Assembly (NCBI GenBank): GCA_964425605.1
Contig: CAYRNR010000028.1
Location: forward strand, 2,069-66,068
Direction: 5' to 3'
DNA: 64,000 bases
From: an uncultured Rickettsiales bacterium
GTDB taxonomy: Bacteria > Myxococcota_A > UBA796 > UBA9615 > CAYRNR01
The notes under the pieces are model-generated. The model did no database searches. It was not told the origin of the DNA and was given only the letters and a program-made list of their open reading frames with translations. Numbering within the stretch: position 1 is the first letter of the stretch; each line of letters starts with the position of its first letter. This document shows positions 7,581-64,000 of this stretch, piece after piece. The position numbers were made by a program, and so were the translations under genes.

Positions 7581-7633
7581 CGCCCGGCCGATAGCACTGG
7601 TCGGGCCGGGACGTAGACGCTAAAAGAAGAATC

Positions 7634-12769: not shown

Positions 12770-12879
12770 CACGAGTCCTCTCCGCACCGGGACGAGACAC
12801 GGCGTTGTCGAGCCGATTGTACAGGTTCCCCGGGGGCTCCGATGCGTCCCGGTGGACCTCTCCGGCGGCGTGGCGCAGG

Positions 12880-35670: not shown

Positions 35671-35677
35671 GACGCCC

Positions 35678-41886: not shown

Positions 41887-43282
41887 CGCGGATCCCCTGC
41901 GGCGTGTCCTCGAGGATCCAGCCCGCCTCCCCCAGCTCGTCCCGCATCGCGTCCGCCGCGGCCCAGTCCTTGTCGGTCCGGGCCTGCTCCCGGCGCGCCA
42001 CCTTCTCCTTGACGTCCGCGGGCACGTCGAGCACCTCGGCCCGCACCTCGGCGAGGCGGAGCCCGAGGACGCGGTCCATGTCGTACAGGGTCTGCAGCAC
42101 CCGGGGCTCGCCGCGGCGGTTGGCCTCGCGCACCATCTCCAGCACCGTGGCCCAGGCCACCGGCATGTTCAGGTCGTCGTGGACCGCGCTGAGGAACTTC
42201 TCCACGTACTCGCCGGTCCACGCCTCGGCGCCCTGTTCGGCCTCCTCGGGCGCGTACCGCACGAACCCGTACAGCCCCTGCAGCGCCTTTTGCGCCGCGC
42301 GCACGGCCTTGATGTCGAAGGTCAGCGGCTGGCGGTAGCGGGCGCCGTAGCAGAACACCCGGTAGGCCATGGGGTTGATGCGCTGCTCCTTGAGCCCCGA
42401 CAGGGTCGAGATGTTGCCCAGCGACTTGCTCATCTTCCCCTCCTCGCCCGACCTGCTGGGCAGGGTGAGGAAGTTGGCGTGGACCCAGTAGCGCACGAAC
42501 TCGACGCCCGTGGCGCCCTCGCTCTGGGCGATCTCGTTGGTGTGGTGCACCGGGATGTGGTCGATGCCGCCGGAGTGGATGTCCAGGGTCTCGCCCAGGT
42601 AGTGCATGGACATGGCCGAGCACTCCAGGTGCCACCCCGGGTAGCCCCGGCCCCACGGCGAGTCCCACTGCATGATGTGGTTGGGCTGGTTGACCTTCCA
42701 CAGGGCGAAGTCGCTGGGGTTGCGCTTGTCCGGGTTGACGTCGACGCGGGCGCCCGCCTCCTGGCCGCCGATGTTGAGGCCGGCCATGTTGCCGTAGGCG
42801 CTGAACCGGGCGGTGTCGAAGTACACGGCCGAGTCGGTGGCGTAGGCGTAGCCGTTCTCCTCGAGACGCCGCACCAGATCGATCTGCTGGTCGATGTGAT
42901 CGGTGGCCTTCGGCATCACGTGCGGCTGCAGCAGGTTCAGGTCGTCCATGTCGGCGAGGAAGGCGTCGGTGTAGAACTGGGCGATCTCCCACGGCGTCTG
43001 GCCCCGCTCGCGGGCCGCCGCCTCCATCTTGTCCTCGCCCTCGTCCTCGTCCGTGGTCATGTGGCCCACGTCGGTGATGTTCATCACGTGGTTCACGTCG
43101 TAGCCGTCGTACTCCAGCAGCCGCCGCAGCACGTCGGTGAACACGTAGGTGCGCAGGTTCCCCAGGTGGGCGTACCCGTAGACGGTGGGGCCGCACGAGT
43201 AGTAGGTGACCTTCCCCGCTTCCAGCGGCTCGAAGGGGACGACGCGTCGTTGGTCGGTGTTGTAGATCCTCAGCTCGCGCAT
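41870..43282 (-). CDS. cysS: Cysteine--tRNA ligase
   Basis: Distal 470 codons of track ORF 41870..43519. Start MRELRIYNTDQRRVVPF. Contains the HIGH-type motif YAHLGNLR and KMSKS. Confidence 0.93.
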   Translation of the reverse strand: MRELRIYNTDQRRVVPFEPLEAGKVTYYSCGPTVYGYAHLGNLRTYVFTDVLRRLLEYDGYDVNHVMNITDVGHMTTDEDEGEDKMEAAARERGQTPWEIAQFYTDAFLADMDDLNLLQPHVMPKATDHIDQQIDLVRRLEENGYAYATDSAVYFDTARFSAYGNMAGLNIGGQEAGARVDVNPDKRNPSDFALWKVNQPNHIMQWDSPWGRGYPGWHLECSAMSMHYLGETLDIHSGGIDHIPVHHTNEIAQSEGATGVEFVRYWVHANFLTLPSRSGEEGKMSKSLGNISTLSGLKEQRINPMAYRVFCYGARYRQPLTFDIKAVRAAQKALQGLYGFVRYAPEEAEQGAEAWTGEYVEKFLSAVHDDLNMPVAWATVLEMVREANRRGEPRVLQTLYDMDRVLGLRLAEVRAEVLDVPADVKEKVARREQARTDKDWAAADAMRDELGEAGWILEDTPQGIRVRKKE

Positions 43283-43460
43283 GCCACACTCGCTCCTCGT
43301 GGGGCTCCATGATGGGGCCACCGTGGCGGCTACATTACCTCGCAGGACAGGGGCGTCAACCTCCCGCTGGTCCCAATTGAGCTTGCGTCGCGCGTGGGCG
43401 CCCGGATACATTGACGCTGGTCGAACAGGCCAGGGGCCCCATTCGGAAGGGATCGACGTG

Positions 43461-44537
43461 ATGAAGCGCTTTGCCTCAATCACCGTGTTCGTGGCGCTCG
43501 CAGCGAGCGTCGCCATCAACAGCGGCTGCCAGGACTACAACATGATCGGTCCGGGCGACTGGTCGCCCGAGGATCAGCCGGAGCAGCTCGGGGAGACCCA
43601 CCTCGAGGACATCTTCATCCAGCGCACCGCCGAGGCCAGCGACATCCTCTTCGTCGTGGACAACTCCTGCTCCATGCAAGAGGAGCAGCAGGCGCTGATG
43701 ACGAACTTCTGGAACTTCATCCAGTTCTTCGTCGATTCGGGCCTCGACTACCACATCGGCGTCACCGTCCTCGACGACTGGGCCACCCAGCCCCCCATCG
43801 GCCAGCTCTTCGGCACCACGCGGTACATCGAGCCCGCCACCCCCGACCCCATCGGCGCCTTCACCGCCAACATGACCATGGGCTCCGACGGCATGGGCTC
43901 GTGCGAGGTCGGCCTCGAGGCCAGCTACCGCGCCCTCACGCCGCCGCTGGTGGACGGCTACAACGCCGGCTTCTATCGCGACGACGCCCTGCTCTCCATC
44001 GTCGTCGTCTCCGACGAGATCGACGGCAGCATCTACGGCTGCGACGCCATCTCCTACATGGAGTACATCCCCTGGCTCACCACCTTGAAGGGCTCCCACT
44101 CCATCGACATGATCCACTTCGCCGCCATCGTCGGAGATCACCCCAACGGCTGCTCCAGCAGCTGGGGCGAGGCCGACCCCGGGCGGGGCTACTACGAGGT
44201 CTACACCGCCCTGGGTGACGACCACGCCACCTTCTTCAGCATCTGCAACCAGGACTGGGGCGACGTCATGACCCGCCTCGGCCTCGAGGCCGCCGGTCTC
44301 CGCACCTCCTTCCACCTCTCCCTCGTTCCCGTCGAGGGCACCCTCGAGGTCTTCCTCGACCTCGACGGCGACGACGGCCCCGACGAGGAGATCGAGATCT
44401 TCGAGGACGCCGACTACCTCACCGACTGGGCCTTCGTCTACAACCGCACCTCCAACAGCCTCGACTTCGTCTTCGAGACCATGCCGCCGGAGAGCGCCAA
44501 GCTCCGCGTGGTCTACCAGGTCGCCGAGGACGCATAG
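43461..44537 (+). CDS. vWA-like lipoprotein
   Basis: Track ORF 43281..44537, with start at MKRFASITVFVALAASVAINSGC (lipobox). MIDAS-type DxSxS motif in ILFVVDNSCSMQEEQ. Confidence 0.6.
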   Translation: MKRFASITVFVALAASVAINSGCQDYNMIGPGDWSPEDQPEQLGETHLEDIFIQRTAEASDILFVVDNSCSMQEEQQALMTNFWNFIQFFVDSGLDYHIGVTVLDDWATQPPIGQLFGTTRYIEPATPDPIGAFTANMTMGSDGMGSCEVGLEASYRALTPPLVDGYNAGFYRDDALLSIVVVSDEIDGSIYGCDAISYMEYIPWLTTLKGSHSIDMIHFAAIVGDHPNGCSSSWGEADPGRGYYEVYTALGDDHATFFSICNQDWGDVMTRLGLEAAGLRTSFHLSLVPVEGTLEVFLDLDGDDGPDEEIEIFEDADYLTDWAFVYNRTSNSLDFVFETMPPESAKLRVVYQVAEDA

Positions 44538-44657: not shown

Positions 44658-47432
44658 ATGAGACACCTCCTCGCCCTGCTCGCCCTCTTCTGCGCCCTCT
44701 CCCTGGTGGCGTGCCCGTCCGGAGACGACGACGATTCGACCGTTGGCGACGACGACGACGCCACCGCGGACGACGACGACGACGACACCACGGCGAACAC
44801 GACGCCCATCGTCCTGGAGGTCGCGCACGAGCCCCTGGACCTGACCGAGCTGGCGGTGGAGGCCATCGAGCTGGCGCCGGACTGGCTGCAGGACGACCTG
44901 GCGGTGGCGTTCGACGCGCACGGGACGACGGACCAGGACGATCTGGCGATGCTGATCGTGGACGAGGAGGACCTGTACCTCATCGACGAGATCGCATTCG
45001 CCATCGCCCACACGAGCCCGGAGGTGCTGTCGTACGGCGCGTTCTACCCGGAGCTGCTGACGATCAACGCGGAGCTGATCTACGCGTACGACCCGCTGCT
45101 GGAGTTCGTGCAGCTCGAGGACGTGGGGGAGCCGGGCGTGGACGCGGACTACTACACGACCACCACGTATCGCATCGAGGACGAGTCGGGGAACGTGGTG
45201 GAGAAGACGGTGGATCGGGACATCTACTACTGGTACGTGGTGCACCCGCGGCTGGAGGACGAGTGGCCCCTGTTCATCGACGGGTGGGCCAGCGCGAACG
45301 CCTCGAGCCCGGAGAACGGCTGGTTCTGGCGGGAGTTCCTGTGGGACGCGGCCGCCGAGGAGTGCCCCGAGGACAAGACGTGCTACCTGCTGCAGGATTA
45401 CTTCGAGGGCATCGACGTGGTCTGGAAGTCCAAGGCGGAGACGCGCACGGACAACGGGGCCATCGGCGAGCTCATCCAGTTCGTGTGGGACACCATCGAC
45501 TTCGGCGCGGGCGACGAGCGGCCGGTGCAGCCGGTGCGCATCTACACGGTGGAGCGGGGCAACTGCGGCGAGCACGCGGACCTGAGCTCCGCGGCGGCGC
45601 GCACGGTGCTGATCCCGTGCCGCAACGTGGGCGCGCGATCCAATGATCACACCTGGGACGAGTTCTGGGACGACCGCTGGATCGCCTGGGAGCCCATCGG
45701 CACCCACGTGGACTACTTCGGCTACTACAAGGGCGGCGTGGGCCGCGACGGCGAGGACGACAACTGCGACGGGCTGGCCGACGACGGGCTGAGCACCGAC
45801 GACGCGGACGGCGACGGCTTCTCCCCCGCCGCGTTCGACTGCGACGACAACGACGCGGACGTGTTCCCCGGCGCCACGGAGGTCCACAACGGCTACGACG
45901 ACGACTGCGACGGTGTGGCCGATCCGGGCATGTCCGAGGCCGACCTGGACGCGGACGGCGACGGCTTCTCCATCAGCACCGGCGACTGCGACGACATGGA
46001 CGCCGACGCCTACCCCGGCGCCGAGGAGGTGGTCGACGGTGTGGACGACGACTGCGACGGCATCGCCGACGACGGGCTGGACGAGACCGACGCGGACGCG
46101 GACGGGTTCACCATCGCGGCCGGCGACTGCGACGACAACGACGCGTCGCGCTACCCGGGCGCCGCGGAGAGCTCCAACGCGGTGGACGACAACTGCGACG
46201 GCGTGGCCGACGACGGGTTCCTGGATCCCCACCTCGACCGCGACGGCGACGGCTTCACCGTGGCCGACGGCGACTGCAACGACTGGGTGGAGACCAGCTA
46301 CCCGGGTGCCGCCGAGATCGAGAACCGGATCGACGACGACTGCGACGGGACCGCCGACTCGGGCGTGGACCTCGACGACCTCGACGGGGACGGGTACGAG
46401 ATCATCTTCGGCGACTGCGACGACACCAACGCCGACGTGTACCCCGGCGCGCCGGAGCTCTCCAACGGCTACGACGACAACTGCGACGGGGCCGCCGACG
46501 AGGGGCTGCAGGGCCACGACCACGACGGGGACGGCTGGACCATCGAGGACGGCGACTGCGACGACCTCGACGCGGGCCGCCACCCGGACGCCCAGGACCC
46601 GTCGCTGTCGTCCAACCGGCTGTACGCGATGACCGGAGCGCGCGGCGACACCTACATCACCACCGACATGACCGACAACTACGTCACCAACCCTTCGTAT
46701 CTCGAGTTCGAGGTCACCGACTCCCAGGGCCGGCCCGTGGACGGCGCCGTGGTGGTGATCTACGGCACCTGGGCCGTGTACGGCTACCCCGACAGCTGGG
46801 CGTGGGCCGCAGAGCTGATCACCGACCTGGACGGGTACGCGTTCAGCACCGTGGGCGAGTTCAACCCCTACGGCTACGCCGTGTACTCGGAGATCGGCGA
46901 CGATCCCGGGGGCGATTCGCTGTACGTGGGCGTGGAGCAGACCGAGGCATTCGAGACCTACTCGATCCCCACGGCCCTGAACCAGTCCATGCCCGCCGAG
47001 CCCGCCGCCAGCGAGGTGAGCCCGGGCGACGCGGAGATGACGGTGGAGTTCACCTTTGCCGTGGAGAGCCACCGCATCGGCGTGGACGGCTCGTACCTGG
47101 GCACCATGTCCCTGGAGGGCGACGGCGGGCACGTCGCGGCCTACGTCATGGACGCGGCCAACTACAACCTGTACCGCGACGGCGAGGACTTCGAGGCGGT
47201 GGTCATCGAGACGGGCTCCGACGGCGGCACGTTCAGCGCCGATCTGCCCCGCGACAAGACCTGGGCGGTGGTGCTGTCCAACAAGTCCGTGACCTCGACC
47301 ACCATGATCGGCTCGGTGGAGGTGTCGGTGACGCCCGCCGGGGGCGTGGTGTGGGACGAAGAGGTCGCGCCCCTGGCGATGCGCTTCCAGATCCCGCCGG
47401 ACGAGTTCCTGGCCTTCTCCCTGGACGACTGA
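44658..47432 (+). CDS. Lipoprotein: poly-Asp tether, transglutaminase-like core, six MopE-type putative metal-binding repeats, C-terminal beta-rich domains
   Basis: Lipobox LVAC|PSGDDDD. The transglutaminase-like Cys/His/Asp triad is in ERGNCGEHADLSSAAARTVLIPCRNVG...NDHTWDEFWDD. Repeats have the form D.DGDG[FWY]....DCDD.......PGA.E..N..DD[DN]CDG. Confidence 0.7.
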   Translation: MRHLLALLALFCALSLVACPSGDDDDSTVGDDDDATADDDDDDTTANTTPIVLEVAHEPLDLTELAVEAIELAPDWLQDDLAVAFDAHGTTDQDDLAMLIVDEEDLYLIDEIAFAIAHTSPEVLSYGAFYPELLTINAELIYAYDPLLEFVQLEDVGEPGVDADYYTTTTYRIEDESGNVVEKTVDRDIYYWYVVHPRLEDEWPLFIDGWASANASSPENGWFWREFLWDAAAEECPEDKTCYLLQDYFEGIDVVWKSKAETRTDNGAIGELIQFVWDTIDFGAGDERPVQPVRIYTVERGNCGEHADLSSAAARTVLIPCRNVGARSNDHTWDEFWDDRWIAWEPIGTHVDYFGYYKGGVGRDGEDDNCDGLADDGLSTDDADGDGFSPAAFDCDDNDADVFPGATEVHNGYDDDCDGVADPGMSEADLDADGDGFSISTGDCDDMDADAYPGAEEVVDGVDDDCDGIADDGLDETDADADGFTIAAGDCDDNDASRYPGAAESSNAVDDNCDGVADDGFLDPHLDRDGDGFTVADGDCNDWVETSYPGAAEIENRIDDDCDGTADSGVDLDDLDGDGYEIIFGDCDDTNADVYPGAPELSNGYDDNCDGAADEGLQGHDHDGDGWTIEDGDCDDLDAGRHPDAQDPSLSSNRLYAMTGARGDTYITTDMTDNYVTNPSYLEFEVTDSQGRPVDGAVVVIYGTWAVYGYPDSWAWAAELITDLDGYAFSTVGEFNPYGYAVYSEIGDDPGGDSLYVGVEQTEAFETYSIPTALNQSMPAEPAASEVSPGDAEMTVEFTFAVESHRIGVDGSYLGTMSLEGDGGHVAAYVMDAANYNLYRDGEDFEAVVIETGSDGGTFSADLPRDKTWAVVLSNKSVTSTTMIGSVEVSVTPAGGVVWDEEVAPLAMRFQIPPDEFLAFSLDD
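44724..44786 (+). repeat. GAC-rich (poly-Asp) coding tract after the lipobox
   Basis: Encodes DDDDSTVGDDDDATADDDDDD. Confidence 0.9.
45748..46601 (+). repeat. Six tandem ~47-49-codon coding repeats (putative metal-binding motif family)
   Basis: Repeat cores in order: DDNCDG...DGDGFSPAAFDCDDNDADVFPGA; DDDCDG...DGDGFSISTGDCDDMDADAYPGA; DDDCDG...DADGFTIAAGDCDDNDASRYPGA; DDNCDG...DGDGFTVADGDCNDWVETSYPGA; DDDCDG...DGDGYEIIFGDCDDTNADVYPGA; DDNCDG...DGDGWTIEDGDCDDLDAGRHPDA. Confidence 0.85.
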
Positions 47433-51426: not shown

Positions 51427-52446
51427 GTGGCAGGAATGGACTTCGGCAAAGAAACCCGGCTGGCGATGAAACCCATCAAGCAGAAGAAGCGGCGGTACTA
51501 CGCCATCGTCTTCTTCCTGGTGATCGCCATCGTCGGCGGCATGGTCGGGTACGTGAAGTACAACCAGTACAAGCGGGACAAGGGCTTCAACGACGCCATG
51601 GCGCTCATGGAGGCCGGCCTCGACAAGGGCGACTACGCCAGCTTGAGCGCGGCGGAGAAGGCCATCGCCGTGGAGGCCGCGCGCAACAACCCGCGCGTGG
51701 AGGCCGTGGCCCACACCGTGCTGCTGCGCGCGCTGCTGTGGAAGATGTTCACCGGCGAGGCCGTGCTGCTGAGCGAGTGCCGCAAGTTCGTGGCGTTCCT
51801 CAAGGAGCCGCTGGTGGACGACACGGGCAAGGAGTTCGACAGCCCCTACAAGGACGAGCCCATGACCGCGGTGGCCGACGCCGTGGTCAAGGCGATCAAT
51901 CCCGAACAGGACGGCGACATCGAGGCCGCCCGCGCGTTCCTCAACGGCATGGACGCGTCCATGCTGCCGCCGGGTGAGAAGGAGTACTGGCTCGCCATCA
52001 CCCACTGGTCCGCCGGTGAGTGGGTGCCCGCCGAGGCGATGATGAAGCGCGCCGTGGGCGCCGCCGACACGCCGCACCACCGCTTCGGGCTCGCCCGCGT
52101 GCTGCAGATGGGCGGCAAGCAGGCCGAGGCCATCGAGGAGTACAACAAGGTGCTCGGGGCCAACCCGGACCACCTGGCCGCGCAGGCCTACCTGCTGCTG
52201 CTGCAGCTGGACCCCTCCCAGGACATGGCCGCCCCCATCGAGGCGTTCTTCACCAGCCACGCCGGCACCGTGCCGGCGCGCATCGCGTCGGACCTCACCC
52301 TCGTGATGGCCCACGCGTACTGCGTCAAGGGTGAAGAGGACCGCGCGCGGCGCGTGATCCAGCAGGCCAAGGTCAACGACCCCGGCTACAAGCTATTGCT
52401 GGACTGGCAGCCGCCGGCGCCGCCCGAGCCCGAAGAAGAGAAGTAG
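51427..52446 (+). CDS. Membrane-anchored TPR-like protein
   Basis: Basic N-terminus, then TM helix YYAIVFFLVIAIVGGMVGYV, then helical repeat-like segments (AEAIEEYNKVLGANPDHLAAQAYLLLL). Confidence 0.5.
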   Translation: MAGMDFGKETRLAMKPIKQKKRRYYAIVFFLVIAIVGGMVGYVKYNQYKRDKGFNDAMALMEAGLDKGDYASLSAAEKAIAVEAARNNPRVEAVAHTVLLRALLWKMFTGEAVLLSECRKFVAFLKEPLVDDTGKEFDSPYKDEPMTAVADAVVKAINPEQDGDIEAARAFLNGMDASMLPPGEKEYWLAITHWSAGEWVPAEAMMKRAVGAADTPHHRFGLARVLQMGGKQAEAIEEYNKVLGANPDHLAAQAYLLLLQLDPSQDMAAPIEAFFTSHAGTVPARIASDLTLVMAHAYCVKGEEDRARRVIQQAKVNDPGYKLLLDWQPPAPPEPEEEK

Positions 52447-54891
52447 TAGCGGCACGACGCTCACCTCGATCACGCCCCCCGATCCGCCGCAGCTCCCGCC
52501 GCAACACCCCCCCGCCTCCGCCAGAGCCAGGTCCTCGCACCACAGCGCAGCCTCGTGGACCTCGTCCGGGCCGTTGATCACCGTGTGGCGCACCACCTCG
52601 ACGGCGTCCACGATCGCCCCCTCGCCCGGATCGACGACCTCGAGGCGCAGGGTGTGGAGGCCGTCCTCGGCGAACGACCGGGTGAACACGGCCAGGGGGC
52701 CGGCGCGGTCGCCGTCCAGGTCCACGCGCGTGACCAGCTCGTCGTCCACGAAGACGTCGGCCGAGCCGTAGCCCGGCCCCAGCGAGGCGATCCAGCGCAC
52801 CTCCCGGCCGAAGAACTCCACGCTCACGGCGTCCCCGGCTCCCCGGGTCTGGTACGAGCCGCCGCCCGTGCCGCCCCCCTCCACGCGGTGCCAGCCCTGG
52901 CCGGAGTACCTCAGCGGGCAGGCCTGCTCCTCGTACCGCACCAGGCGGTCCAGCAGGTGCCAGTTCTCCCCCTCGTCGCAGGTGAAGAACGCGCCGTAGT
53001 GGGTGGTGGCCACCAGGGCAGCGGGCAGCCCCGGCGGCGCGGTCACGTCCACCACGGGCGAGGCAAACGGCGTGGGCACGCGGACCCAGTCGAGGCCGCC
53101 GTCGGCCGAGCGGAGGAGGCCCGTCGGATCCAGGGTGAGCATCAGGTCGCCGCCGGGCAGCTGGCGACCCTCGAGCACGCGGGTGTCCAGGGGGGCGATC
53201 TCCTCGCCGCCGATCCAGATCCTGCCCGACCGGCCGACCGCCACGAGACCGCCGCCATCCTCCCCGGCCGTGGCAAAGGCCGCCGCGAGGATCTCCCCCT
53301 CGGGCAGCTCCAGCAGGGTAGCCCAGCTGTCCCCGAGATCGGTGGACAGCAGCACCGCGGCCGGGTCCGCCTGGACCGCGTACACGGCGTGCCCCGTCGG
53401 ATCGAAGAACACGTCGCGGATCTGGGGAGCCGGCGCCGGCTCCCCCGTCCAGATCGATTCCCAGGTCTCGCCCGCGTCGAAGCTGCGGGCCACGACCCAC
53501 TGCCCCTCGTCGTCGGTGGTGCCCACGGCAAAGGCGAGGCGATCATGGTCGAACGCCGGGGAGAAGACCACGTGGTGGAGGAGCTCGATGCCGGGCAGGA
53601 GGACGTGCTCGAACCGCGTCCCCCCGTCCGCGGTGCGCATGAGGCGGCGGCTGGACACCACCATGGCCACGGGATCGTCGGGGAAGCCCGGCGCCGTGGC
53701 GATGCGCTCCACGTAGAGGTGATCGTCGAGCCCCTCGAGCACGGACCAGGTGTCCCCGCCGTCGTCGGTGGAGCGTACTCCGCTGCCGTACGCACCCACC
53801 CACAGGGTGGGGTCGTCCGGGTACGCCGGCGAGAACGCGGCGCTGCGGGCGAACGCCGGCGACACGATGCAGCTCTCCACCCAGGTCTCTCCCTCGTCGG
53901 CGCTGATCATCAGCCCCTCCCACGAGGAGAGCAGCGCGGCGGACGGGTCGTCCTGGACGCGGTCCACGCGGCGGAAGTGCCCCCACTGGCTGCTGGACTG
54001 CTCGGCGCGGGCCGGGAGGCCGTCGGAGCACATGTCCCAGGCCGCGCCGCCGTCGTCGCTGCACAGGGCGCCGTAGCTCGCGGTGACGGCCAGGACCCGC
54101 TGGTCGTCCAGCGAGACCAGGTCCTGGACCCCCTCCTCCACCTGCCCCGTGACCGCCGTCGCCAGGTCGACCTCGGCCCAGGTCTCCCCTCGATCGTCGC
54201 TGTACAGGACCGTGCCGTGGCGCGTGCCCGCCCAGATCCGGTCGTCGGCGGCGAACCCCGGCGACAGGTTCACCACCGCCGGCGCGCTGCCGTCCCCGCA
54301 GCCCACCGAGGGGTTCCAGGTCGCGCCGTCGTCGTGGGAGAGCCACAGGCACGCGTCGCCGGCCAGCGCGGCGATGAAGGGATCGTCGGGGTGGCCCGGC
54401 GAGGCCACCACCTGCTGCACCGGAGCCGCTCCCAGCCCGTCCAGGGGCGTCCACGTGGCGCCCTGGTCGGCGCTGACGTGGAGTCCGAGCTCGGTCCCGG
54501 CCAGCAGCTCCCCTGCGGGCGTGGGCGCCACAGTGCGCACGGCGCCGCCGTCCGGTTCCGCCGTCCGGGCCCACGAGAAGCCGCCGTCGAGGCTGACGAA
54601 CACCTCGGCGTCCACGCCGTTGGCGGCGTACAGGAGCCCGTCCGGGCCCGCCTCCAGTGACGTGAGCACCTCGGCGGAGGCCTCGGCGGCCACGAAGGAC
54701 CACGTCCGACCCCCGTCGCCGGACACCACCATCAGGCGCCGCTCGGGGTACAGGTACTGGGCGACCACGTGGTCTCCGAGGCCCGCGGCCTCGGCCATGA
54801 CGTCGTGGGGGAAGTGTGCGGCCGCAGGGAGCGGGCCGCAGACCCCCAGCAGGATCACCAGCGCGGGGAGGGTTCGGTTCATCCTCCACAC
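52393..54891 (-). CDS. BNR/Ycf48-like repeat protein with MYXO-CTERM-like anchor (paralog of 12880..15423)
   Basis: The start is GTG 54891 or ATG 54882 (MNRTLPALVILLGVCGPLPAAA). Repeats include SGDGGRTW, SLDGGFSW, SADQGATW, SHDDGATW, SDDRGETW and others. The tail is GGCCGGSCGGSGGVIEVSVVPLLLLFFGLGRRRRLPVQQ. Confidence 0.7.
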   Translation of the reverse strand: MWRMNRTLPALVILLGVCGPLPAAAHFPHDVMAEAAGLGDHVVAQYLYPERRLMVVSGDGGRTWSFVAAEASAEVLTSLEAGPDGLLYAANGVDAEVFVSLDGGFSWARTAEPDGGAVRTVAPTPAGELLAGTELGLHVSADQGATWTPLDGLGAAPVQQVVASPGHPDDPFIAALAGDACLWLSHDDGATWNPSVGCGDGSAPAVVNLSPGFAADDRIWAGTRHGTVLYSDDRGETWAEVDLATAVTGQVEEGVQDLVSLDDQRVLAVTASYGALCSDDGGAAWDMCSDGLPARAEQSSSQWGHFRRVDRVQDDPSAALLSSWEGLMISADEGETWVESCIVSPAFARSAAFSPAYPDDPTLWVGAYGSGVRSTDDGGDTWSVLEGLDDHLYVERIATAPGFPDDPVAMVVSSRRLMRTADGGTRFEHVLLPGIELLHHVVFSPAFDHDRLAFAVGTTDDEGQWVVARSFDAGETWESIWTGEPAPAPQIRDVFFDPTGHAVYAVQADPAAVLLSTDLGDSWATLLELPEGEILAAAFATAGEDGGGLVAVGRSGRIWIGGEEIAPLDTRVLEGRQLPGGDLMLTLDPTGLLRSADGGLDWVRVPTPFASPVVDVTAPPGLPAALVATTHYGAFFTCDEGENWHLLDRLVRYEEQACPLRYSGQGWHRVEGGGTGGGSYQTRGAGDAVSVEFFGREVRWIASLGPGYGSADVFVDDELVTRVDLDGDRAGPLAVFTRSFAEDGLHTLRLEVVDPGEGAIVDAVEVVRHTVINGPDEVHEAALWCEDLALAEAGGCCGGSCGGSGGVIEVSVVPLLLLFFGLGRRRRLPVQQ

Positions 54892-58725: not shown

Positions 58726-59091
58726 ATGAGGACACGAGACTCGGTCCTGGTGCTGGTGGCCACGCTCTCGGTGCTGTTCGCAGCCACCACCAGCCGTGGT
58801 GAGGAGGGCGAGGAGGAGGAGAAGGTCTTCGACGCCGACTCGGGCGCGGCCACCCTCGACGTCTCCGAGTACCCCGAGGAGATGCAGGAGCTGTACACCC
58901 TGTACGCCCGCAAGTGCAGCAAGTGCCACACCCTGGCGCGTTCCATCAACTCCGAGTACCGCGGCGAGGACTGGGACCGGTACGTGGCGCGGATGTCGCG
59001 CAAGCCCAACTCCGGGATCTCGCCGAAGACCGGCGACAAGATCCTGTCGTTCCTCAAGTTCCACTTCGAGCAGCTCGACTCCGAGGAGTAG
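58726..59091 (+). CDS. Small secreted monoheme c-type cytochrome-like protein
   Basis: Distal part of track ORF 58321..59091. ATG 58726 follows GGAGAGGA. It has a signal peptide MRTRDSVLVLVATLSVLFAA and a single CxxCH (CSKCH). Confidence 0.6.
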   Translation: MRTRDSVLVLVATLSVLFAATTSRGEEGEEEEKVFDADSGAATLDVSEYPEEMQELYTLYARKCSKCHTLARSINSEYRGEDWDRYVARMSRKPNSGISPKTGDKILSFLKFHFEQLDSEE

Positions 59092-59130
59092 CCCGCACGC
59101 CCCCACACACGCGGGCGCGCGTGTGGTTCA

Positions 59131-60684
59131 ATGGGGGACGTGACGCCGTCCACCCCCGCCGAGGACCTCGCCAGCGCGCTCGAAGCCATCGGTTGCCGAC
59201 GGGCGTGCCCGGTCCACACGGACGCCGGACGGTACGCCCAGGCCCTGGCGCGCCGGGACGCGCGCGAGGCCGTGCGAATCGCGCGCCACACCAACCCCCT
59301 GGTCAGCGTCTGCGCCCACATCTGCACCCACCCCTGCGAGAGCGCCTGCATCCGGTCCGGGTATGACGCGCCGCTGGCCCTGCGCCGCCTGAAACGGCAG
59401 GCGCTGGAGGAGGTGGACCCCCGGGAGGTGGCTCCCCGTCCCCACGACACCCGGGGCGAGGGACACCGCGTCGCCGTGGTGGGCGCGGGCCCGGCGGGCC
59501 TGTCCGCCGCCCACGACCTGGCGCTGGCGGGATACCCGGTGACCGTGTTCGAGGCGGGGCCGGTGCCCGGCGGGCTGCCAGCCCAGGCGATCCCCGAGTT
59601 CCGCCTGCCCCGCGCCGCCCTCGAGCGCGATATCGAGGGCATCGTGGCGCTGGGCGTGGAGATCCGCACCCACGTCGAGGTCCCCCTGGGCGCAGATCTG
59701 CGCGGCGAGGGGTTCGAGCGGACCCTGCTCGCGCCCGGGCTCCCGGACGGCGCGCGGCTGCCCGTGCCCGGCGCGGAACATCCACGCGTCGTCGACGGCC
59801 TGGACCTGCTGAGGGAGCTCGTGGCCGGCCAGCCCGGGGAGATCGGGCCGAGGGTCGTGGTCATCGGCGGCGGTGACACGGCCGTGGACGTGGCGCGCGC
59901 AGCGATCCGGCTGCCGTCGGTGGACGAGGTGGAGCTGATCTTCCGGCGCCCCCGGCTCGACGGGCGATCCCGCCGCGAGGAGGCCGCCGCCGCCGAGGCC
60001 GAGGGGGTCCAGCTCCGGCCGCTGTCCATCCCCACGTCCATCGAGGCCCTCGATGGCGGCCTCGGCGTGGTGGTCGCCGAGGTGGCCACCTACCACGACG
60101 TCCACGCCCGCTACCGCCCGCGCGCGCGCCCCGGAACCCGCTGCCGGATCGACGCGGATCACGTGCTGGTGGCCGTGGGGCGCGGGGGGCCTCCCCTTCC
60201 CGATGGAGGCGGGGCCCTGCGCACGCGCGACGGATCGCAGCTCGTGGTCGCGCCCACCTGGGCCGCGGGCGGAGATCGGACCGGGGCAGGCACCGTGATC
60301 CGCGCCGTGGCCGACGGCCAGGCCCTGGCCCGGCGGGTGGATCGTGAGCTCACCGGCAGCGAGCCCGTGTCGTCCCGATGCCGCAGCCGGGTGTCGGGCC
60401 CACCACCCCACGCGTGGCCCCGAGCGAGCCGGCGGATGGCGGCGGCCGCCGAGGAGGGCTCGCGCTGCCTCAACTGCTACGCTGCGGTCCGCTCCCACGA
60501 CGAGGCGGTCTGCGTGGCCTGCGGTCGTTGCGTGGACGGATGCCCGGCGGGGGCCCTGTCCCTGGGAGGAGACGAACGGGAGACCGTGCTGGCCCGTGAG
60601 GACCTGTGTCTCCGCTGCGGGCTCTGCGTCGAGCGTTGTCCTGTAGGATGTCTGCTGTGGCTGGAACACACCGATGACGGATGA
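59131..60684 (+). CDS. GltD-like (glutamate synthase small-subunit family) NAD(P)H:FAD oxidoreductase with C-terminal 2x[4Fe-4S] ferredoxin domain
   Basis: N-terminal Cys clusters: CRRACPVHTD and VCAHICTHPCESAC. Dinucleotide folds: VAVVGAGPAGLSAA and VVVIGGGDTAVDVA. C-terminal ferredoxin motifs: CVACGRCVDGCP and CLRCGLCVERCP. Confidence 0.8.
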   Translation: MGDVTPSTPAEDLASALEAIGCRRACPVHTDAGRYAQALARRDAREAVRIARHTNPLVSVCAHICTHPCESACIRSGYDAPLALRRLKRQALEEVDPREVAPRPHDTRGEGHRVAVVGAGPAGLSAAHDLALAGYPVTVFEAGPVPGGLPAQAIPEFRLPRAALERDIEGIVALGVEIRTHVEVPLGADLRGEGFERTLLAPGLPDGARLPVPGAEHPRVVDGLDLLRELVAGQPGEIGPRVVVIGGGDTAVDVARAAIRLPSVDEVELIFRRPRLDGRSRREEAAAAEAEGVQLRPLSIPTSIEALDGGLGVVVAEVATYHDVHARYRPRARPGTRCRIDADHVLVAVGRGGPPLPDGGGALRTRDGSQLVVAPTWAAGGDRTGAGTVIRAVADGQALARRVDRELTGSEPVSSRCRSRVSGPPPHAWPRASRRMAAAAEEGSRCLNCYAAVRSHDEAVCVACGRCVDGCPAGALSLGGDERETVLAREDLCLRCGLCVERCPVGCLLWLEHTDDG

Positions 60685-61111
60685 AGCCGAGGTCCGGACG
60701 CGCCGCAACGTCCTGATGTACGGCGCCGCTGCCCTGGCCGCTGCCGCCGGGCTCGGCAGCTACGTCTCGCTGGAGTTCGTCACGCCGTGGGCGCGAGATC
60801 GCTCGCGCGGCGCCGTGATCGTGGGATACCCCGAGGAGATCCCGGTGGGCTCGGTGATGGTGGTCGGCGCTGCGCGCGCATTCGTGGGCCGCACCGAGGA
60901 CGGGTTCTTCGCCCTGTCCACCGTCTGTCCGCACCTGGGGTGCGTGCTGCGCTGGCTACCCGACGAGCGGCGGTTCCACTGCCCGTGCCACGGCAGCCAG
61001 TTCGAGCTGGACGGCCGGGTGCTCAACGGCCCCGCGCGGACCGATCTCCGCGCCCTGGAGCTGGGCACCGACGACCAGGGGCGGCTGCTGGTGGACGGGG
61101 GAGAGTCTTGA
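60674..61111 (+). CDS. Rieske [2Fe-2S] subunit of a cytochrome bc-type complex
   Basis: Twin-arginine signal/anchor ([21 protein letters not shown]). Cluster ligands CPHLGC and CPCHGS. The start overlaps the upstream gene by 11 bp. Confidence 0.88.
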
Positions 61112-61113
61112 CC

Positions 61114-61848
61114 GTGCAGCCGAGCGAACCCCGGGGCCTCGTCGACCGGATACGGGCGAGCCGTCTGTGGCGTTCCTTCGCCCGCACGCCTGTCCCGGAC
61201 ACGGACACGGGGCGCATCCGGTTCGTGCTCTCCAGCGTGCTGCTGCACATCCGGCCCGTCCGCGTGTCCCCCCTCGACTACCGCTTCACCGCCACGTTCT
61301 GCCTCGGCGGCCTCACGGCGTTGATGTTCGTCCTGCTCACGGTGACCGGCGTCTACCTGATGGTCTACTTCCGTCCCGCCGTGCCCGAGGCGTACCACGA
61401 CATCGAGGACCTGATGTACGCGGTGCCCGCCGGCGCGTTCATGCGCAACCTGCACCGCTGGGCTGCCCACGGCATGGTGATCACGGTGGTGCTGCACATG
61501 GTGCGCGTGTTCGTCGCCCGCGCCTACGCGCCACCGCGGGAGTTCAACTGGCTGGTGGGTGTGGGGCTGCTGCTGCTCACCCTGGCGCTGAGCTACACCG
61601 GCTACCTGCTTCCCTGGGACCAGCTGGCGTTCTGGGCCGTCTCCGTGGGTACGAAGATGGCCGAATCGGTGCCCCTGGTGGGGGAGCCCGCACGCAGGTT
61701 GCTGCTGGGGGACGACCAGGTCGGCGCCTCGGCCCTGCTGCGTTTCTACGTTCTGCACTGCATCGTGTTGCCCGCGGCTGCGGTCGTGCTGATGGCCGTC
61801 CACTTCTGGCGCGTGAGAAAGGATGGGGGGCTGGCGCGGCCCCTGTGA
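61114..61848 (+). CDS. Cytochrome b6-type (N-terminal four-helix) subunit
   Basis: Distal part of track ORF 60787..61848. The start is GTG 61114, or TTG 61108 overlapping the Rieske stop. Heme-ligand His pairs: [17 protein letters not shown] and [18 protein letters not shown]. Confidence 0.85.
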
Positions 61849-61850
61849 CG

Positions 61851-62501
61851 ATGACCTCGACGACCCCCAGGGAGAACCCACGCGAGGGCCGCCGGTCCAC
61901 GGACCGGGGCGCGATGGTGCCGTGGTTCCCGGACTACCTGCTGCTCGAGGGTGCGGCGGCGCTGGTCGCCGTGGCCGTGCTCGGCCTCGTGGCGTTGCTG
62001 GTGGACGCGCCCCTGCTGGACATCGCGGACCCGGGCGTGACACCGGATCCGTCCAAGGCCCCGTGGTACTTCGTCGGCCTGCAGGAGCTGCTGCACTACT
62101 ACCCACCCGCGGTGGCCGGTGCGCTGGTTCCCGCCCTCACGGTGGTCCTGCTCGTGGTCGCGCCGTTCACGTCACGGGCCGCCCTGTGGCCGCCGGGGGC
62201 TCCTCGATCGCGGCGCCTCGGGGCCGTGTGCCTCGGCGTGGGGCTGCTGCTGGCGGCCGAGGCGCTCCCCGCCCAGCACGTTCCGTGGCTCCTCGTGGTC
62301 CCCACCGCAGCCATAGGCGCCGCGATGATCGCTCCGGCGATCCTCTCCGGCGGGATCGCGATCCACCTGGGGAGGCTGTCCCTGGCCTCGTGGATCGCCC
62401 TGTGGCTGGGCCTGTGCGCGGTGGGCCTCACCGCGGCCGGAGCCCTGTTCCGGGGTCCCGGGTGGGCCTGGTGCTGGCCGTGGGCCGGGGGGGGGGGCTA
62501 G
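61851..62501 (+). CDS. Cytochrome b C-terminal / subunit IV-like protein
   Basis: Distal part of track ORF 61167..62501. ATG 61851 is 2 nt after the cytochrome b stop. The Qo-loop segment is DPSKAPWYFVGLQELL. Extra TM helices follow, and the protein ends WPWAGGGG, encoded by a G11 run. Confidence 0.75.
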   Translation: MTSTTPRENPREGRRSTDRGAMVPWFPDYLLLEGAAALVAVAVLGLVALLVDAPLLDIADPGVTPDPSKAPWYFVGLQELLHYYPPAVAGALVPALTVVLLVVAPFTSRAALWPPGAPRSRRLGAVCLGVGLLLAAEALPAQHVPWLLVVPTAAIGAAMIAPAILSGGIAIHLGRLSLASWIALWLGLCAVGLTAAGALFRGPGWAWCWPWAGGGG

Positions 62502-62504
62502 ACC

Positions 62505-63989
62505 GTGCGCAGTCTCTCCACGCGCCTGTTCGCCATGGCCGCGACCGCCGTCCTCCTCGCCACGGCGATGCTGGCGTTGCGGGTCCTCGATCCGCCGTGG
62601 AAGGGAATCCAGCGCGAGCGCATCGACGAGCAGATCACCCTGGCACGGCGGTCGGTGGAGGCCCAGCAAGAGGCATTCGAGCGCTCCAGGGTGTCCCTGG
62701 ACCACGTCCGGGCGGAGGAGACCGCGGCCACGGCGCGCGCGGACCTGCCCAGCGCGGAGCTGGACTCCCTCGAGATCGAGCTGACACTGCTCGACGAGCG
62801 CCGCGCGGACCTGCTCGTGCTGCTGGAGGAGGACGCGGATCCCGCCGCGGCGGAGGCCGCCCACGAGGCCTATGTCCGGCTCACGGGTACCCCGGACGCG
62901 GATCCGGAGGAGATCGAGCGCCTCCGGCTGCGCGAGAGAGCCGCCAGCGGAGCCGAGCGCCTCGAGGAGCTGGACACCCTGGGCGACCAGCGGCGCCGCG
63001 TCGAGGCGCGGATACGCGAGCTGCGCGCGTCCGTGGCCGAGGCCGAGGAGGCGCTGGCCGCCTTCCGCGCCGACCTGGACCGCGCGGAGGCCCGCCTGGA
63101 GCGCTTGCAGCAATGGGACATCGAGGTCCACGAGATCCACACACCGGCTGGCGGCGTGGACCGATGCACCACGTGCCACCCCGGGATGGACGACCTCGGC
63201 GCGACCCACGCCACCCTGGGCCCGGACAGCCCCTTCGCCGGCTGGGGGTGCACGCCGTGCCACGGCGGCAACGGCCGCGCCCTGGACGTTCAGGCGGCCC
63301 ACCGCCACCTGACCCTGCGTCCGTGGACCGAGGGGCCCAGGTACAGCCTCGAGCCGGTGATCGCCGAGCTGCAGAGTCCGGATCGGCACCAGCGCGCCGA
63401 GGCCGCGGCGTTCCTGCGACGCGAGACGGGGCGTTCCTTCGGCTATCAGTACCACGCACCGGAGGCGGAACGTGCCGACGCCGTGGCCGCGTGGCGGGCG
63501 TGGTGGGCCGCGGCCGAGGCGTACTACCGCCCCGACCACCCCTCCGGACTCCAGGATCACGGGTACGACGCCTCTGGGCGGCCCCGGCGGCACGTGGGTT
63601 CGGGCGCGTGCTTGCGCTGTCACGAGGCGCGGCAGCGGCAGCACGTGCAGCGCTGGCGGGCCACCAAGTTCACCACCTTCGACCGCCTCGAGGAGATCGA
63701 GGACACGCAGCCCTGTCTCCCCTGCCACACCACGGGGTACGATGAGACGACCGACACCTTCGTGCAGCACGGTGTGACCTGCGAGGCCTGCCACGGCCCG
63801 GGCGCCGGATACTCGGCGGCCATGCAGGCCGCGGTGGTGCTGCAGTCACAGGGATCGTTGGGGGAGGGAGAGCGGTTGCTGGACGACGTGTCCACGCAGC
63901 TGCGCGAGCAGATGGCGCACGGAAACATCTGCGTGGACTGCCACGATCCGTTCGCGGTCAAGGAGCTGGCGTACGAGCACAAGCAGTAG
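62505..63989 (+). CDS. Membrane-anchored hexaheme c-type cytochrome with coiled-coil stalk
   Basis: GTG 62505. TM helix LFAMAATAVLLATAMLAL, then ~190 aa rich in charged heptad-like residues. Six CxxCH motifs: CTTCH, CTPCH, CLRCH, CLPCH, CEACH, CVDCH. Confidence 0.85.
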   Translation: MRSLSTRLFAMAATAVLLATAMLALRVLDPPWKGIQRERIDEQITLARRSVEAQQEAFERSRVSLDHVRAEETAATARADLPSAELDSLEIELTLLDERRADLLVLLEEDADPAAAEAAHEAYVRLTGTPDADPEEIERLRLRERAASGAERLEELDTLGDQRRRVEARIRELRASVAEAEEALAAFRADLDRAEARLERLQQWDIEVHEIHTPAGGVDRCTTCHPGMDDLGATHATLGPDSPFAGWGCTPCHGGNGRALDVQAAHRHLTLRPWTEGPRYSLEPVIAELQSPDRHQRAEAAAFLRRETGRSFGYQYHAPEAERADAVAAWRAWWAAAEAYYRPDHPSGLQDHGYDASGRPRRHVGSGACLRCHEARQRQHVQRWRATKFTTFDRLEEIEDTQPCLPCHTTGYDETTDTFVQHGVTCEACHGPGAGYSAAMQAAVVLQSQGSLGEGERLLDDVSTQLREQMAHGNICVDCHDPFAVKELAYEHKQ

Positions 63990-64000
63990 CGGGACCGCGC

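Follow-up and report, generated by a model that had tools for sequence, protein, structure and literature searches.

A Rieske/cytochrome b operon with an NfnB/GltD-type flavoprotein gene encodes an unusual membrane "complex III"

The closest described counterparts of the locus analyzed here are the NAD(P)-oxidoreductase-linked complexes Kustd1480-1485 and Kuste4569-4574 of the anammox bacterium Kuenenia (Kartal 2013; de Almeida 2016; Hauser 2025, PMC12954380). They contain a Rieske protein, a short b6-type cytochrome b with a CxGG cysteine and a five-helix subunit IV, carry the gene for an NfnB-like FeS flavoprotein inside the operon and use a hexa- or octahaem cytochrome c in place of cytochrome f, all features that recur in the 64,000-nucleotide stretch of DNA investigated in this study (hereafter the window). 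Based on redox potentials and AlphaFold3 models, the anammox complexes have been proposed to reduce NAD(P)+ (PMC12954380), a reaction for which we found no experimental demonstration in the literature on complexes of this kind.

Several other systems share parts of this architecture. The cytochrome b of the window belongs to the "APWY clade" (Kao & Hunte 2014), also described as "subfamily G" (Dibrova 2013, 2017). These names denote phylogenetic groupings rather than characterised enzymes. Their members, patchily distributed over many phyla and reported alongside large NAD(P)-binding FeS oxidoreductases, resemble the window in having an APWY motif in the Qo site, the CxGG sequence, a cytochrome b split from subunit IV and, as its partner, a Rieske protein classed as Mid+ to high-potential. 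In Nitrospina, 'Ca. Methylomirabilis' and Poribacteria, operons for a Rieske protein, b6 and subunit IV include a cytochrome b of the same clade, the APWY motif and a multihaem cytochrome c for cytochrome f, but they have no flavoprotein and an octahaem protein instead of the hexahaem and heptahaem cytochromes associated with the window. The ExtOPQ/Cbc6 cluster of Geobacter (GSU2930-2935) likewise sets several multihaem cytochromes c beside a Rieske protein, a short cytochrome b and a membrane subunit, and its cytb_ExtP and memb_ExtQ families are the best NCBIfam matches of the window's cytochrome b and subunit IV, both below the cut-offs. This cluster, which is tied to an outer-membrane conduit (ExtHIJKL), encodes neither a flavoprotein nor a molybdoprotein, unlike the window operon. 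Cytochrome b6f (PetABCD), finally, provides the best solved match of the window's cytochrome b (spinach b6, 6rqf; 8e-46), with the same split cytochrome b, four histidine ligands and haem ci cysteine, whereas the window lacks cytochrome f and the small Pet subunits, replaces PEWY with APWY, has a subunit IV of five rather than three helices and adds a flavoprotein and multihaem cytochromes.

The initial annotation of the window had described six co-directional, tightly coupled genes, and an open reading frame check recovered all of them on the + strand, at positions 58726-63989. The junctions also agree with those reported: the monohaem cytochrome c and flavoprotein genes are separated by 39 nt, the flavoprotein and Rieske genes overlap by 11 nt, the cytochrome b gene either overlaps the Rieske gene by 4 nt (TTG start) or follows it at +2 (GTG start), the subunit IV gene relates to the cytochrome b gene in the same manner (4-nt overlap with a GTG start or +2 with an ATG start; originally given as 2 bp), and the hexahaem cytochrome c gene begins after a gap of 3 nt. 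A consensus scan of the + strand found no terminator-like site within the cluster. The spacer behind the first gene (59092..59130, + strand; 39 nt), in which no T-tract terminator was found, corresponds to 420 nt in the related locus L001. Together with the first flavoprotein codons, it is predicted to form a GC-rich hairpin across the start region of the flavoprotein gene (-32.9 kcal/mol and a z-score of -2.3 for 59080-59145) and may serve as an expression-tuning or processing element. The gene order and the start/stop overlaps of the flavoprotein and Rieske genes recur in relatives whose flavoproteins share 33-92% identity, so that the arrangement goes far beyond what chance can account for. 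The six-gene set is a genuine operon encoding an unusual membrane "complex III". However, it is not complete within the window, as two further genes lie past the window end.

The Rieske [2Fe-2S] protein (60674..61111, + strand; 145 aa; PF00355, 5e-13) possesses a twin-arginine N-terminal anchor (RTRRNVL) and the cluster boxes CPHLGC and CPCHGSQF. Its top two relatives in the PDB are the Kuenenia proteins Kuste4569 (9rk4, 4.5e-20) and Kustd1480 (9rk3, 1.3e-15), with PetC of cytochrome b6f ranking below both. The serine of the second box is common to the window protein and the Kuenenia proteins measured at +303 and +335 mV, and the complete Ser/Phe pair is also present in Kustd1480, the protein with the potential of +335 mV (PMC12954380). 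The short b6-type cytochrome b (61108 (TTG) or 61114 (GTG)..61848, + strand; ~244 aa; PF00033, 1.4e-43) reaches 277.5 bits with cytb_ExtP, slightly below the cut-off of 290. Its four haem-ligand histidines align with those of spinach b6, as does the cysteine of its FCLGG motif, the equivalent of b6 Cys35 at the haem ci/cn position, and it also has the conserved N-terminal His45. The subunit IV-like protein (61845 (GTG) or 61851 (ATG)..62501, + strand) shows five hydrophobic segments, predicted from hydropathy to span the membrane, and a KAPWYF Qo motif; its matches to PF00032 (E = 0.0028) and memb_ExtQ (7e-11) are both under the family cut-offs (150 for memb_ExtQ). The APWY motif was found in all 83 related loci with a readable motif.

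The second gene (59131..60684, + strand) encodes a cytoplasmic FeS flavoprotein of the NfnB/GltD type (517 aa), as identified by Pfam and NCBIfam. It comprises an N-terminal 2x[4Fe-4S] Fer4_20 domain (1.4e-12), dinucleotide folds for FAD and NAD(P) (Pyr_redox_2, 3.5e-20) and a C-terminal 2x[4Fe-4S] ferredoxin (Fer4_7, 1e-8), and sequence analysis detected neither a signal peptide nor a transmembrane segment. The cluster-binding cysteines are invariant across 43 homologues. The relatives identified in the PDB by sequence are 9bov, NfnA (9n5u), StnC (8oh5) and NfnI (5jca), and a Foldseek search with its AlphaFold2 model (pLDDT 84.9) returned NfnABC, StnABC and NfnI at the top, led by NfnABC (9bov/9bp5), the homologue also given for Kuste4570 (PMC12954380). 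The profile searches (PF00355, PF00033 and the flavoprotein domains), the haem histidines, the KAPWYF motif and the modeled fold uphold the initial calls: the Rieske protein is Tat-anchored, cytochrome b is of the split b6 type and is joined by a subunit IV-like protein, and the flavoprotein is of the GltD type with FeS cysteine clusters, two dinucleotide folds and a ferredoxin tail. NfnB, StnC, NfnABC and GltD have the fold and cofactor motifs of the window protein in common (a pair of [4Fe-4S] clusters at the N-terminus and binding sites for FAD and NAD(P)H). However, they are soluble enzymes that pair with NfnA, with large subunits of glutamate synthase or with hydrogenase-like modules, whereas the window protein has an added C-terminal 2x[4Fe-4S] domain and its gene is tied to a membrane bc-type core.

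The periplasmic side of the system is rich in haem. The first gene encodes a secreted monohaem cytochrome c (58726..59091, + strand; 121 aa) with a hydrophobic N-terminus, a single CxxCH motif (CSKCH, residue 64) and a weak match to the Pfam family Cytochrome_CBB3 (E = 0.002). The sixth gene specifies a membrane-anchored hexahaem cytochrome c (62505..63989, + strand; 494 aa), in which one N-terminal transmembrane segment is followed by ~180 charged, apparently helical residues, similar to the long helical region described for Kustd1485, and then by six CxxCH motifs. Its Pfam matches are to TMF_DNA_bd (a coiled-coil type) and, weakly, to multihaem families, and its first dihaem module shows a weak likeness to an octahaem protein of Acidobacteriota. 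Both cytochromes have orthologues in loci L001, L004, L008 and L009, where the monohaem gene occupies the same position. The contig of L089, which belongs to the same organism and whose sequence is identical to the window over the final 41 nt, continues the operon with two genes. One encodes a heptahaem lipoprotein, the other a Nas/Nap-like molybdoprotein exported by the Tat pathway. Molybdoproteins of this kind are rare. The Tat signal places the protein in the periplasm; it is most closely related to Nas/Nap reductases and to formate dehydrogenases, and a residue comparison found it to lack the Cys/Sec-His and Arg characteristic of the latter. The Mo-ligand cysteine is replaced by Asp, the residue found at this position in Nar-type enzymes. 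We found no description of the eight-gene cluster with the molybdoprotein in the literature on the APWY clade/subfamily G.

With its Rieske matches, shared flavoprotein homologue and five-segment subunit IV, the locus is of the same kind as the Kuenenia complexes, a likeness to the atypical anammox clusters that the initial annotation had already recognized. It differs from them in its gene order, with the flavoprotein gene placed first, in the lack of an HAO-like octahaem protein, in its periplasmic branch of hexahaem cytochrome c, heptahaem lipoprotein and Tat Nas/Nap-like molybdoprotein, and in its high-GC host lineage. Across its whole length, the flavoprotein shares only 30% identity (E = 3e-58) with its counterpart in L047, a cluster from a Planctomycetota MAG with a Rieske protein nearest to Kustd1480, a value that describes the distance to this MAG cluster rather than to Kuenenia's own sequences. 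The host is not an anammox planctomycete according to CysS, the single marker checked, whose matches at 57-58% identity are all labelled only 'bacterium', with Chloroflexota/Armatimonadota at ~52%. MYXO-CTERM-like tags, previously put forward as a clue to the lineage, were not confirmed, and the annotated part of the window (ten larger ORFs for Pfam, six near the operon for NCBIfam) showed no evident anammox genes.

The anammox clusters had been considered the only precedent for this gene combination. This view does not hold, given that Dibrova et al. (2013/2017) noted NAD(P)-binding FeS oxidoreductases beside subfamily-G cytochromes b "in many other cases" and that, in 45 of 80 related GTDB loci gathered by a cytochrome b query alone, the flavoprotein gene lies directly upstream of, and co-directional with, the cytochrome b gene. 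The loci concerned come from MAGs labelled Acidobacteriota, Chloroflexota and Planctomycetota and from one labelled Steroidobacteraceae; the module is widespread among uncultured soil and freshwater bacteria, beyond anammox. Neighbor-joining trees of cytochrome b and the flavoprotein both divide into the same four groups, with matching sub-clades. This congruence argues for a single inherited module that has co-diversified, so that, of the two origins initially envisaged, an extension of the known module is retained and an independent assembly is not.

The name 'formate dehydrogenase (NADP+) beta subunit', given to many homologues by JGI, and the molybdopterin protein encoded in the same operon point to another reading, in which the flavoprotein would be a soluble protein outside the membrane complex that is merely co-transcribed, for instance paired, as beta subunit, with the molybdoprotein in an NADP-dependent formate dehydrogenase. 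We consider this highly improbable. The two proteins reside on opposite sides of the membrane, and the molybdoprotein lacks the formate dehydrogenase residues mentioned above. Moreover, the flavoprotein travels with Rieske/cytochrome b in clades devoid of the molybdoprotein and co-diversifies with cytochrome b, whereas L009, the closest GTDB relative, has the full cluster including the molybdoprotein but no flavoprotein. In addition, complexes in which cytochrome b occurs together with the large oxidoreductase subunit have been described from Kuenenia (de Almeida 2016, as summarized by Dibrova).

The analysis establishes what each part is, that the genes are linked in a conserved manner and that they have diversified together. 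As to function, the likeliest reading, to which we give about even chances, is that the complex splits quinol oxidation between a high-potential periplasmic branch and the reduction of NAD(P)+. Its membrane core would consist of the Rieske protein, the short cytochrome b with haems bL, bH and probably ci, and the five-helix subunit IV. The flavoprotein, with FAD and four FeS clusters, may dock on the cytoplasmic face, and the membrane-anchored hexahaem cytochrome c would stand in for cytochrome f/c1 on the periplasmic face. In the direction of flow that we infer, the Qo site would oxidize a quinol, presumably menaquinol. One electron would follow the downhill path from the Rieske cluster, which is of high potential, via 13 c-type haems to the molybdoprotein in the periplasm, and this protein might reduce a high-potential acceptor. 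The second, strongly reducing electron would pass from the b haems through the FeS chain to FAD and NAD(P)+. In terms of energetics, the window Rieske box fits the CPCHGS-x-F sequence of Kustd1480, and menaquinol together with such a high-potential Rieske protein has been argued to deliver an electron of sufficiently low potential to reduce NAD(P)+ (PMC12954380).

Some observations speak against this scheme. The absence of the flavoprotein from L009 indicates that it is dispensable for the core, the Acidobacteriota versions with a flavoprotein lack the haem-ci cysteine, so that the haem b-to-FeS route is not uniform, and the conserved histidine, proposed as a ligand of an extra haem b in anammox, is kept with or without an encoded flavoprotein. 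The loss seen in L009, with the cluster kept, would be expected of an optional input module, in which electrons from NAD(P)H pass via FAD and FeS clusters to haem bH/ci and from there either reduce quinone at the Qi site or enter the Q cycle. Such a complex would act as an NAD(P)H:quinone or NAD(P)H:cytochrome c oxidoreductase on a bc-type core, similar to FNR on b6f, whose co-purification sets a precedent. Characterised GltD-, DPD- and NfnB-type modules indeed accept hydride from NAD(P)H, and Hauser et al. (PMC12954380) discussed this option. However, they argued that, relative to a coupled NADH dehydrogenase, it would waste ~250 mV, and the unusually high potential of the anammox Rieske protein that shares the Ser/Phe box is in better agreement with bifurcation. 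While the sequence does not settle the direction, we view electron input through the flavoprotein as a tentative and rather unlikely possibility.

The suggestion of Kao & Hunte that APWY complexes may run in reverse, made with reference to the p-cresol methylhydroxylase cluster of Geobacter metallireducens, also counts against a split of quinol electrons. Applied to the window, the molybdoprotein would oxidize a fairly high-potential substrate, and electrons entering via the multihaem cytochromes c and the Rieske protein would be driven uphill by the pmf through a reversed Q cycle to reduce menaquinone and perhaps also NAD(P)+. The nitrite oxidiser Nitrospina, which needs reverse flow, has the Rieske/b6/octahaem operon of this clade, and the Acidobacteriota versions adjoin a gene for a blue-copper protein. 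Nevertheless, we regard this mode as clearly unlikely, given that the closest relatives of the molybdoprotein are reductases and formate dehydrogenases, with the Asp at the Mo-ligand position leaving the direction unfixed, and that a reversed Qo site needs a low-potential electron, so that the flavoprotein would use up NAD(P)H instead of producing it. If, on the other hand, the electrons from quinol are indeed split between the Rieske protein and the flavoprotein, bacteria with this complex would obtain NAD(P)H straight from the quinol pool, with no need for a reverse-operating complex I.

The cluster comprises six open reading frames on the + strand (58726-63989), whose order in the ORF listing and the family searches agrees with that of the initial annotation. 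The first gene (58726-59091, +) encodes a monohaem cytochrome c with a hydrophobic leader and a single CSKCH motif. It is followed by the genes for the flavoprotein (59131-60684, +; Fer4_20, Pyr_redox_2 and a C-terminal 4Fe-4S dicluster domain), the Rieske protein (60674-61111, +; Rieske family match), cytochrome b/b6 (61108 or 61114 to 61848, +; PF00033, 1.4e-43) and subunit IV (61845 or 61851 to 62501, +; weak PetD-type match). The last gene (62505-63989, +) specifies a hexahaem cytochrome c, with six CxxCH motifs after one N-terminal transmembrane segment. The junctions, too, are those listed originally: a 39-nt gap, an 11-nt overlap between the flavoprotein and Rieske genes, a 4-nt overlap or +2 at each of the next two boundaries, and a 3-nt gap. 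No terminator-like site was found on the + strand inside the cluster by a consensus scan, and the GC content of the operon region (~72%) resembles that of the remaining window. The 39-nt spacer between the monohaem cytochrome and flavoprotein genes contributes to a GC-rich hairpin (59080-59145) that covers the flavoprotein start region, with a predicted free energy of -32.9 kcal/mol and a z-score of -2.3; the counterpart spacer in a related locus, L001, measures 420 nt. An Rfam scan across the window gave no matches.

Pfam matches and motifs bear out the domain assignments made initially for the Rieske protein, the split b6-type cytochrome b, subunit IV and the flavoprotein. When aligned with spinach b6, the cytochrome b retains all four haem-ligating His residues as well as the haem ci Cys. 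The latter lies in the sequence FCLGG, corresponding to the CxGG motif of a short cytochrome b whose subunit IV is encoded by a separate gene. Subunit IV carries the Qo motif KAPWYF, and the APWY signature is shared by the window and all related loci in which the motif is readable (83/83). The Rieske protein starts with a twin-arginine sequence (RTRRNVL) and contains the cluster-binding boxes CPHLGC and CPCHGSQF. For the flavoprotein, neither a signal peptide nor a transmembrane segment is predicted. Its Pfam matches (Fer4_20, FAD and NAD(P) dinucleotide folds) exceed the cut-offs, and the Cys residues that bind its clusters, like its dinucleotide motifs, do not vary among 43 homologues. The AlphaFold2 model of this protein is confident (pLDDT 84.9), and its best structural matches are the NfnB-type subunits of the electron-bifurcating complexes NfnABC, StnABC and NfnI (Foldseek probability 1.00 against NfnABC, StnC and NfnI), followed by GltD and DPD. 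Judged by its domains and predicted fold, it is an NfnB/GltD-type FeS flavoprotein.

Its APWY motif and CxGG Cys place the window cytochrome b, at the level of sequence, in the APWY clade (Kao and Hunte, 2014), or subfamily G (Dibrova et al., 2013, 2017). Unlike the cytochrome b6f complex, the window cluster lacks cytochrome f (PetA), encoding a multihaem cytochrome c instead, and has an APWY rather than a PEWY motif. The best NCBIfam models were those of the Geobacter proteins ExtP (cytochrome b) and ExtQ (membrane subunit), yet both scores fall below the respective cut-offs (277.5 vs 290 and 42.4 vs 150); moreover, the Geobacter cluster differs in gene content and has no flavoprotein.

The cluster shares a set of features with the two atypical Rieske/cytochrome b complexes of the anammox bacterium Kuenenia stuttgartiensis (Kustd1480-1485 and Kuste4569-4574). 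These combine b6-like four-helix cytochromes b with subunit IV-like proteins of five helices, and cytochrome f is replaced by hexa- or octahaem cytochromes, one of which has long helices (Hauser, 2025). In the window, a Rieske protein, a split b6-type cytochrome b and subunit IV are likewise encoded together, and the hexahaem protein similarly stands in for cytochrome f/c1. A long helical region is suggested for the hexahaem protein by a coiled-coil-type Pfam match and charged sequence alone, and hydropathy alone likewise predicts five rather than three segments for subunit IV. The two best solved relatives of the window Rieske protein are 9rk4 (Kuste4569) and 9rk3 (Kustd1480), and its Ser/Phe-type box CPCHGSQF matches that of Kustd1480, whose measured potential is +335 mV. 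As in the anammox-type complexes, an NfnB/GltD-like flavoprotein is part of the operon, and it has its best structural homologue in common with the putative NAD(P) oxidoreductase Kuste4570, for which this is NfnABC from Caldicellulosiruptor. A conserved His near the N-terminus of cytochrome b, His45, is a candidate counterpart of the Kuenenia His proposed to ligate an extra haem b. As a marker of flavoprotein-bearing complexes it was rejected, because every clade member has it, whether or not a flavoprotein is encoded.

The operon continues beyond the window. Exact-match queries with the hexahaem cytochrome and flavoprotein sequences retrieved no record of the window's own contig. Using the molybdoprotein cluster P0242, we reached a 3.4-kb public contig (L089, 1-3356) whose first 41 bases are identical to window positions 63960-64000. 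A gene for a heptahaem lipoprotein (seven CxxCH motifs, LAGC lipobox) begins 23 nt past the window end; the next gene encodes a 703-aa Nas/Nap-like molybdoprotein with the Tat signal RRDLLK. Thereafter come a hairpin and, on the opposite strand, a 5S rRNA gene and the 3' end of a 23S rRNA gene; the presence of an rRNA operon at this position explains why the contigs of the relatives end right past the molybdoprotein gene. Relatives with flavoproteins 92%, 83%, 50% and 48% identical to that of the window show the same arrangement, the hexahaem gene being followed by one for a multihaem cytochrome c (~290 aa) and another for a molybdopterin protein (700-760 aa).

The molybdoprotein, whose counterparts include P0242 and proteins encoded in the related loci L001 (15751-17859), L004 (16063-18342), L008 (15424-17670) and L009 (11720-13960), belongs to a very small family, with 19 clusters of at least 48% identity among 5.8 billion proteins. 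The next matches outside this family are assimilatory nitrate reductases, at no more than 31% identity, and every NCBIfam score is far under the cut-off. In Nas, Nap and Fdh, molybdenum is ligated by Cys/Sec; this family has a nearly invariant Asp at that position, a hydrophobic residue (Leu, Ile or Met) in place of the active-site Arg, and Asp instead of the third FS0 Cys. Because these defining residues are altered, assignments as Nap, Nas or Fdh were ruled out. The protein may represent either a novel kind of enzyme, of the Asp type, or a scaffold that holds no cofactor, like QrcB/ActB. We also considered that the flavoprotein could serve as an FdhB-like partner of the molybdoprotein, with the two forming an NADP-dependent formate dehydrogenase (FdhA/FdhB) pair, but rejected this reading, since the two proteins are assigned to different compartments, the catalytic residues of formate dehydrogenase are missing, and each protein occurs without the other in relatives.

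The distribution of the module was assessed by scanning one genome per GTDB species with the cytochrome b alignment as query, which yielded 80 loci (48-75% identity) that were then searched with HMMs built from the clusters already collected. A flavoprotein of the same family lies directly upstream of, and co-directional with, cytochrome b in 45 of the 80. These 45 loci derive from MAGs labelled Acidobacteriota, Chloroflexota including Limnocylindria, Planctomycetota and, in one case, Steroidobacteraceae, and all six flavoprotein homologues whose contigs were inspected adjoin Rieske and cytochrome b genes. The gene order varies by lineage, being flavoprotein, Rieske, cytochrome b, subunit IV and octahaem cytochrome in Acidobacteriota, and flavoprotein, cytochrome b, subunit IV, Rieske and a mono- or dihaem cytochrome c in Chloroflexota including Limnocylindria. 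In a Planctomycetota MAG (L047), whose Rieske protein has Kustd1480 as its nearest match, the order is Rieske, flavoprotein, cytochrome b, subunit IV and multihaem cytochrome; the L047 flavoprotein aligns with that of the window along its full length at 30% identity (E 3e-58). The neighbour-joining trees built for cytochrome b and for the flavoprotein, which are distance trees without support values, agree both in the four groups they recover and in the sub-clades, and this congruence argues that the two genes have travelled together.

Sequence analysis establishes which parts of the complex bind cofactors, the conserved linkage of the genes and their co-diversification, and it predicts the sidedness of the subunits from Tat or signal sequences and from the presence or lack of transmembrane segments. 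By analogy with the proposal in the literature that the anammox complexes drive NAD(P)+ reduction with quinol, the most likely function of the window complex is a split of quinol oxidation in the anammox style. One electron released from quinol at the Qo site would pass to a presumably high-potential Rieske cluster and then through 13 c-type haems to the molybdoprotein, along a putative periplasmic chain of hexahaem protein, heptahaem protein and molybdoprotein. The other would take the route of the b haems and a chain of four FeS clusters, reaching FAD and finally NAD(P)+, with the flavoprotein probably docking on the cytoplasmic face, as synteny and co-diversification suggest. According to a published argument, a Rieske cluster with the potential measured for the Ser/Phe box of Kustd1480 would leave the Qo semiquinone with sufficient reducing power for NAD(P)+, provided that menaquinone is the quinone used.

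Natural variants are compatible with more than one direction of this electron flow. Among GTDB loci, L009 is closest to the window cluster (cytochrome b 75% identical). It encodes the monohaem cytochrome, Rieske protein, cytochrome b, subunit IV, hexahaem and heptahaem cytochromes and molybdoprotein (6987-13960) but no flavoprotein, with the stop of the monohaem gene overlapping the Rieske start. Members from Poribacteria, Nitrospina, Ktedonobacteria, Thermomicrobiales and Bacillota lack the flavoprotein as well; together with the congruent trees, this identifies the flavoprotein as a stable yet removable module. The loss seen in L009 would fit the quinol-splitting reading, but equally a flow in the opposite direction, in which NAD(P)H feeds the Qi side through the flavoprotein, and a reversed Q cycle supplied by the periplasmic enzyme. 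We regard the former of these alternatives as rather unlikely and the latter as improbable. The Acidobacteriota variants in which the haem ci Cys is missing likewise fit all three directions; in two of them, L006 (9289-18219) and L007 (9299-17794), cytochrome b has YYLG in place of FCLGG, with the flavoprotein retained, and the cluster is flanked by a blue-copper protein gene upstream and genes for octahaem and cbb3-type monohaem cytochromes downstream. In L004 (6229-8397, -), L008 (7257-9377, -) and L009 (4717-6954, -), a divergent gene just upstream of the cluster encodes a DsrMK/HdrD-like membrane protein of 706-745 aa with NarI-like haem b, FeS and CCG domains; this gene is absent in the window and L001.

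The window also contains part of the dcw cell-wall cluster (Mur ligase, MraY, FtsI-type PBP) and cysS (24539-35940, -; 41870-43519, -). The best named matches of CysS are labelled 'bacterium' (57-58%; clusters P0133 and P0137), followed by Chloroflexota/Armatimonadota (~52%), which sets the host well apart from every named lineage; close unnamed relatives exist as well. By this single marker, the lineage differs from the anammox planctomycetes, as surmised initially. The label 'uncultured Rickettsiales' on the L009 record is not credible, being at odds with its 70% GC DNA. The MYXO-CTERM-like tags reported for neighbouring proteins were not confirmed, as the C-terminally tagged proteins had no NCBIfam match. 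One of them, an 832-aa BNR/Ycf48-like beta-propeller protein (52393-54891, -), is encoded by a gene whose synteny is kept in relatives. Its C-terminus resembles a sorting tag, with a stretch rich in Cys and Gly before a hydrophobic helix and a final RRRR, but matched neither MYXO-CTERM nor any other NCBIfam tag model. Further genes encode a 924-aa protein with five MopE-type putative metal-binding repeats and a transglutaminase-like core (44658-47432, +) and a VKOR-DsbA/thioredoxin fusion, representing a VKOR-type disulfide-bond formation system (39669-40943, +); two neighbouring genes (7634-11407, +) show weak DUF3604 matches.

The flavoprotein-linked kind of complex is already known from anammox bacteria and from the remark of Dibrova et al. 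that similar oxidoreductase genes adjoin subfamily-G cytochromes b 'in many other cases'. Our sequence comparisons add its quantified and phylogenetically congruent distribution, a natural cluster variant that lacks the flavoprotein, and a variant with a periplasmic hexahaem cytochrome, a heptahaem cytochrome and a rare Asp-type Tat molybdoprotein; a literature search found no explicit description of this eight-gene cluster. The idea that a bc-type complex may send its low-potential electron to NAD(P)+ rather than recycling it is a bioenergetic proposal that has so far been argued for anammox bacteria only. These are hard to grow, and the module's presence in other lineages provides more candidate organisms for study. 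Taken with the 45 related loci, the window locus indicates that flavoprotein, Rieske protein and cytochrome b are passed on together in several lineages that are abundant in soil and freshwater, with informative natural variants that differ in the haem ci Cys, the flavoprotein (L009) and the periplasmic partners. The window variant, in turn, points to a rare family of molybdoproteins that carry a Tat export signal and have Asp in the position of the metal ligand. It is tempting to speculate, if on balance doubtful, that flavoprotein-bearing Rieske/cytochrome b complexes constitute a general, modular system that bifurcates electrons from quinone to NAD(P)H and extends well beyond anammox to MAGs labelled Acidobacteriota, Chloroflexota and Planctomycetota and to the window lineage, where its partner would be a periplasmic molybdoenzyme of an Asp type not described before. 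If so, the respiration of a high-potential oxyanion would directly pay for the generation of NAD(P)H from menaquinol in the window lineage.
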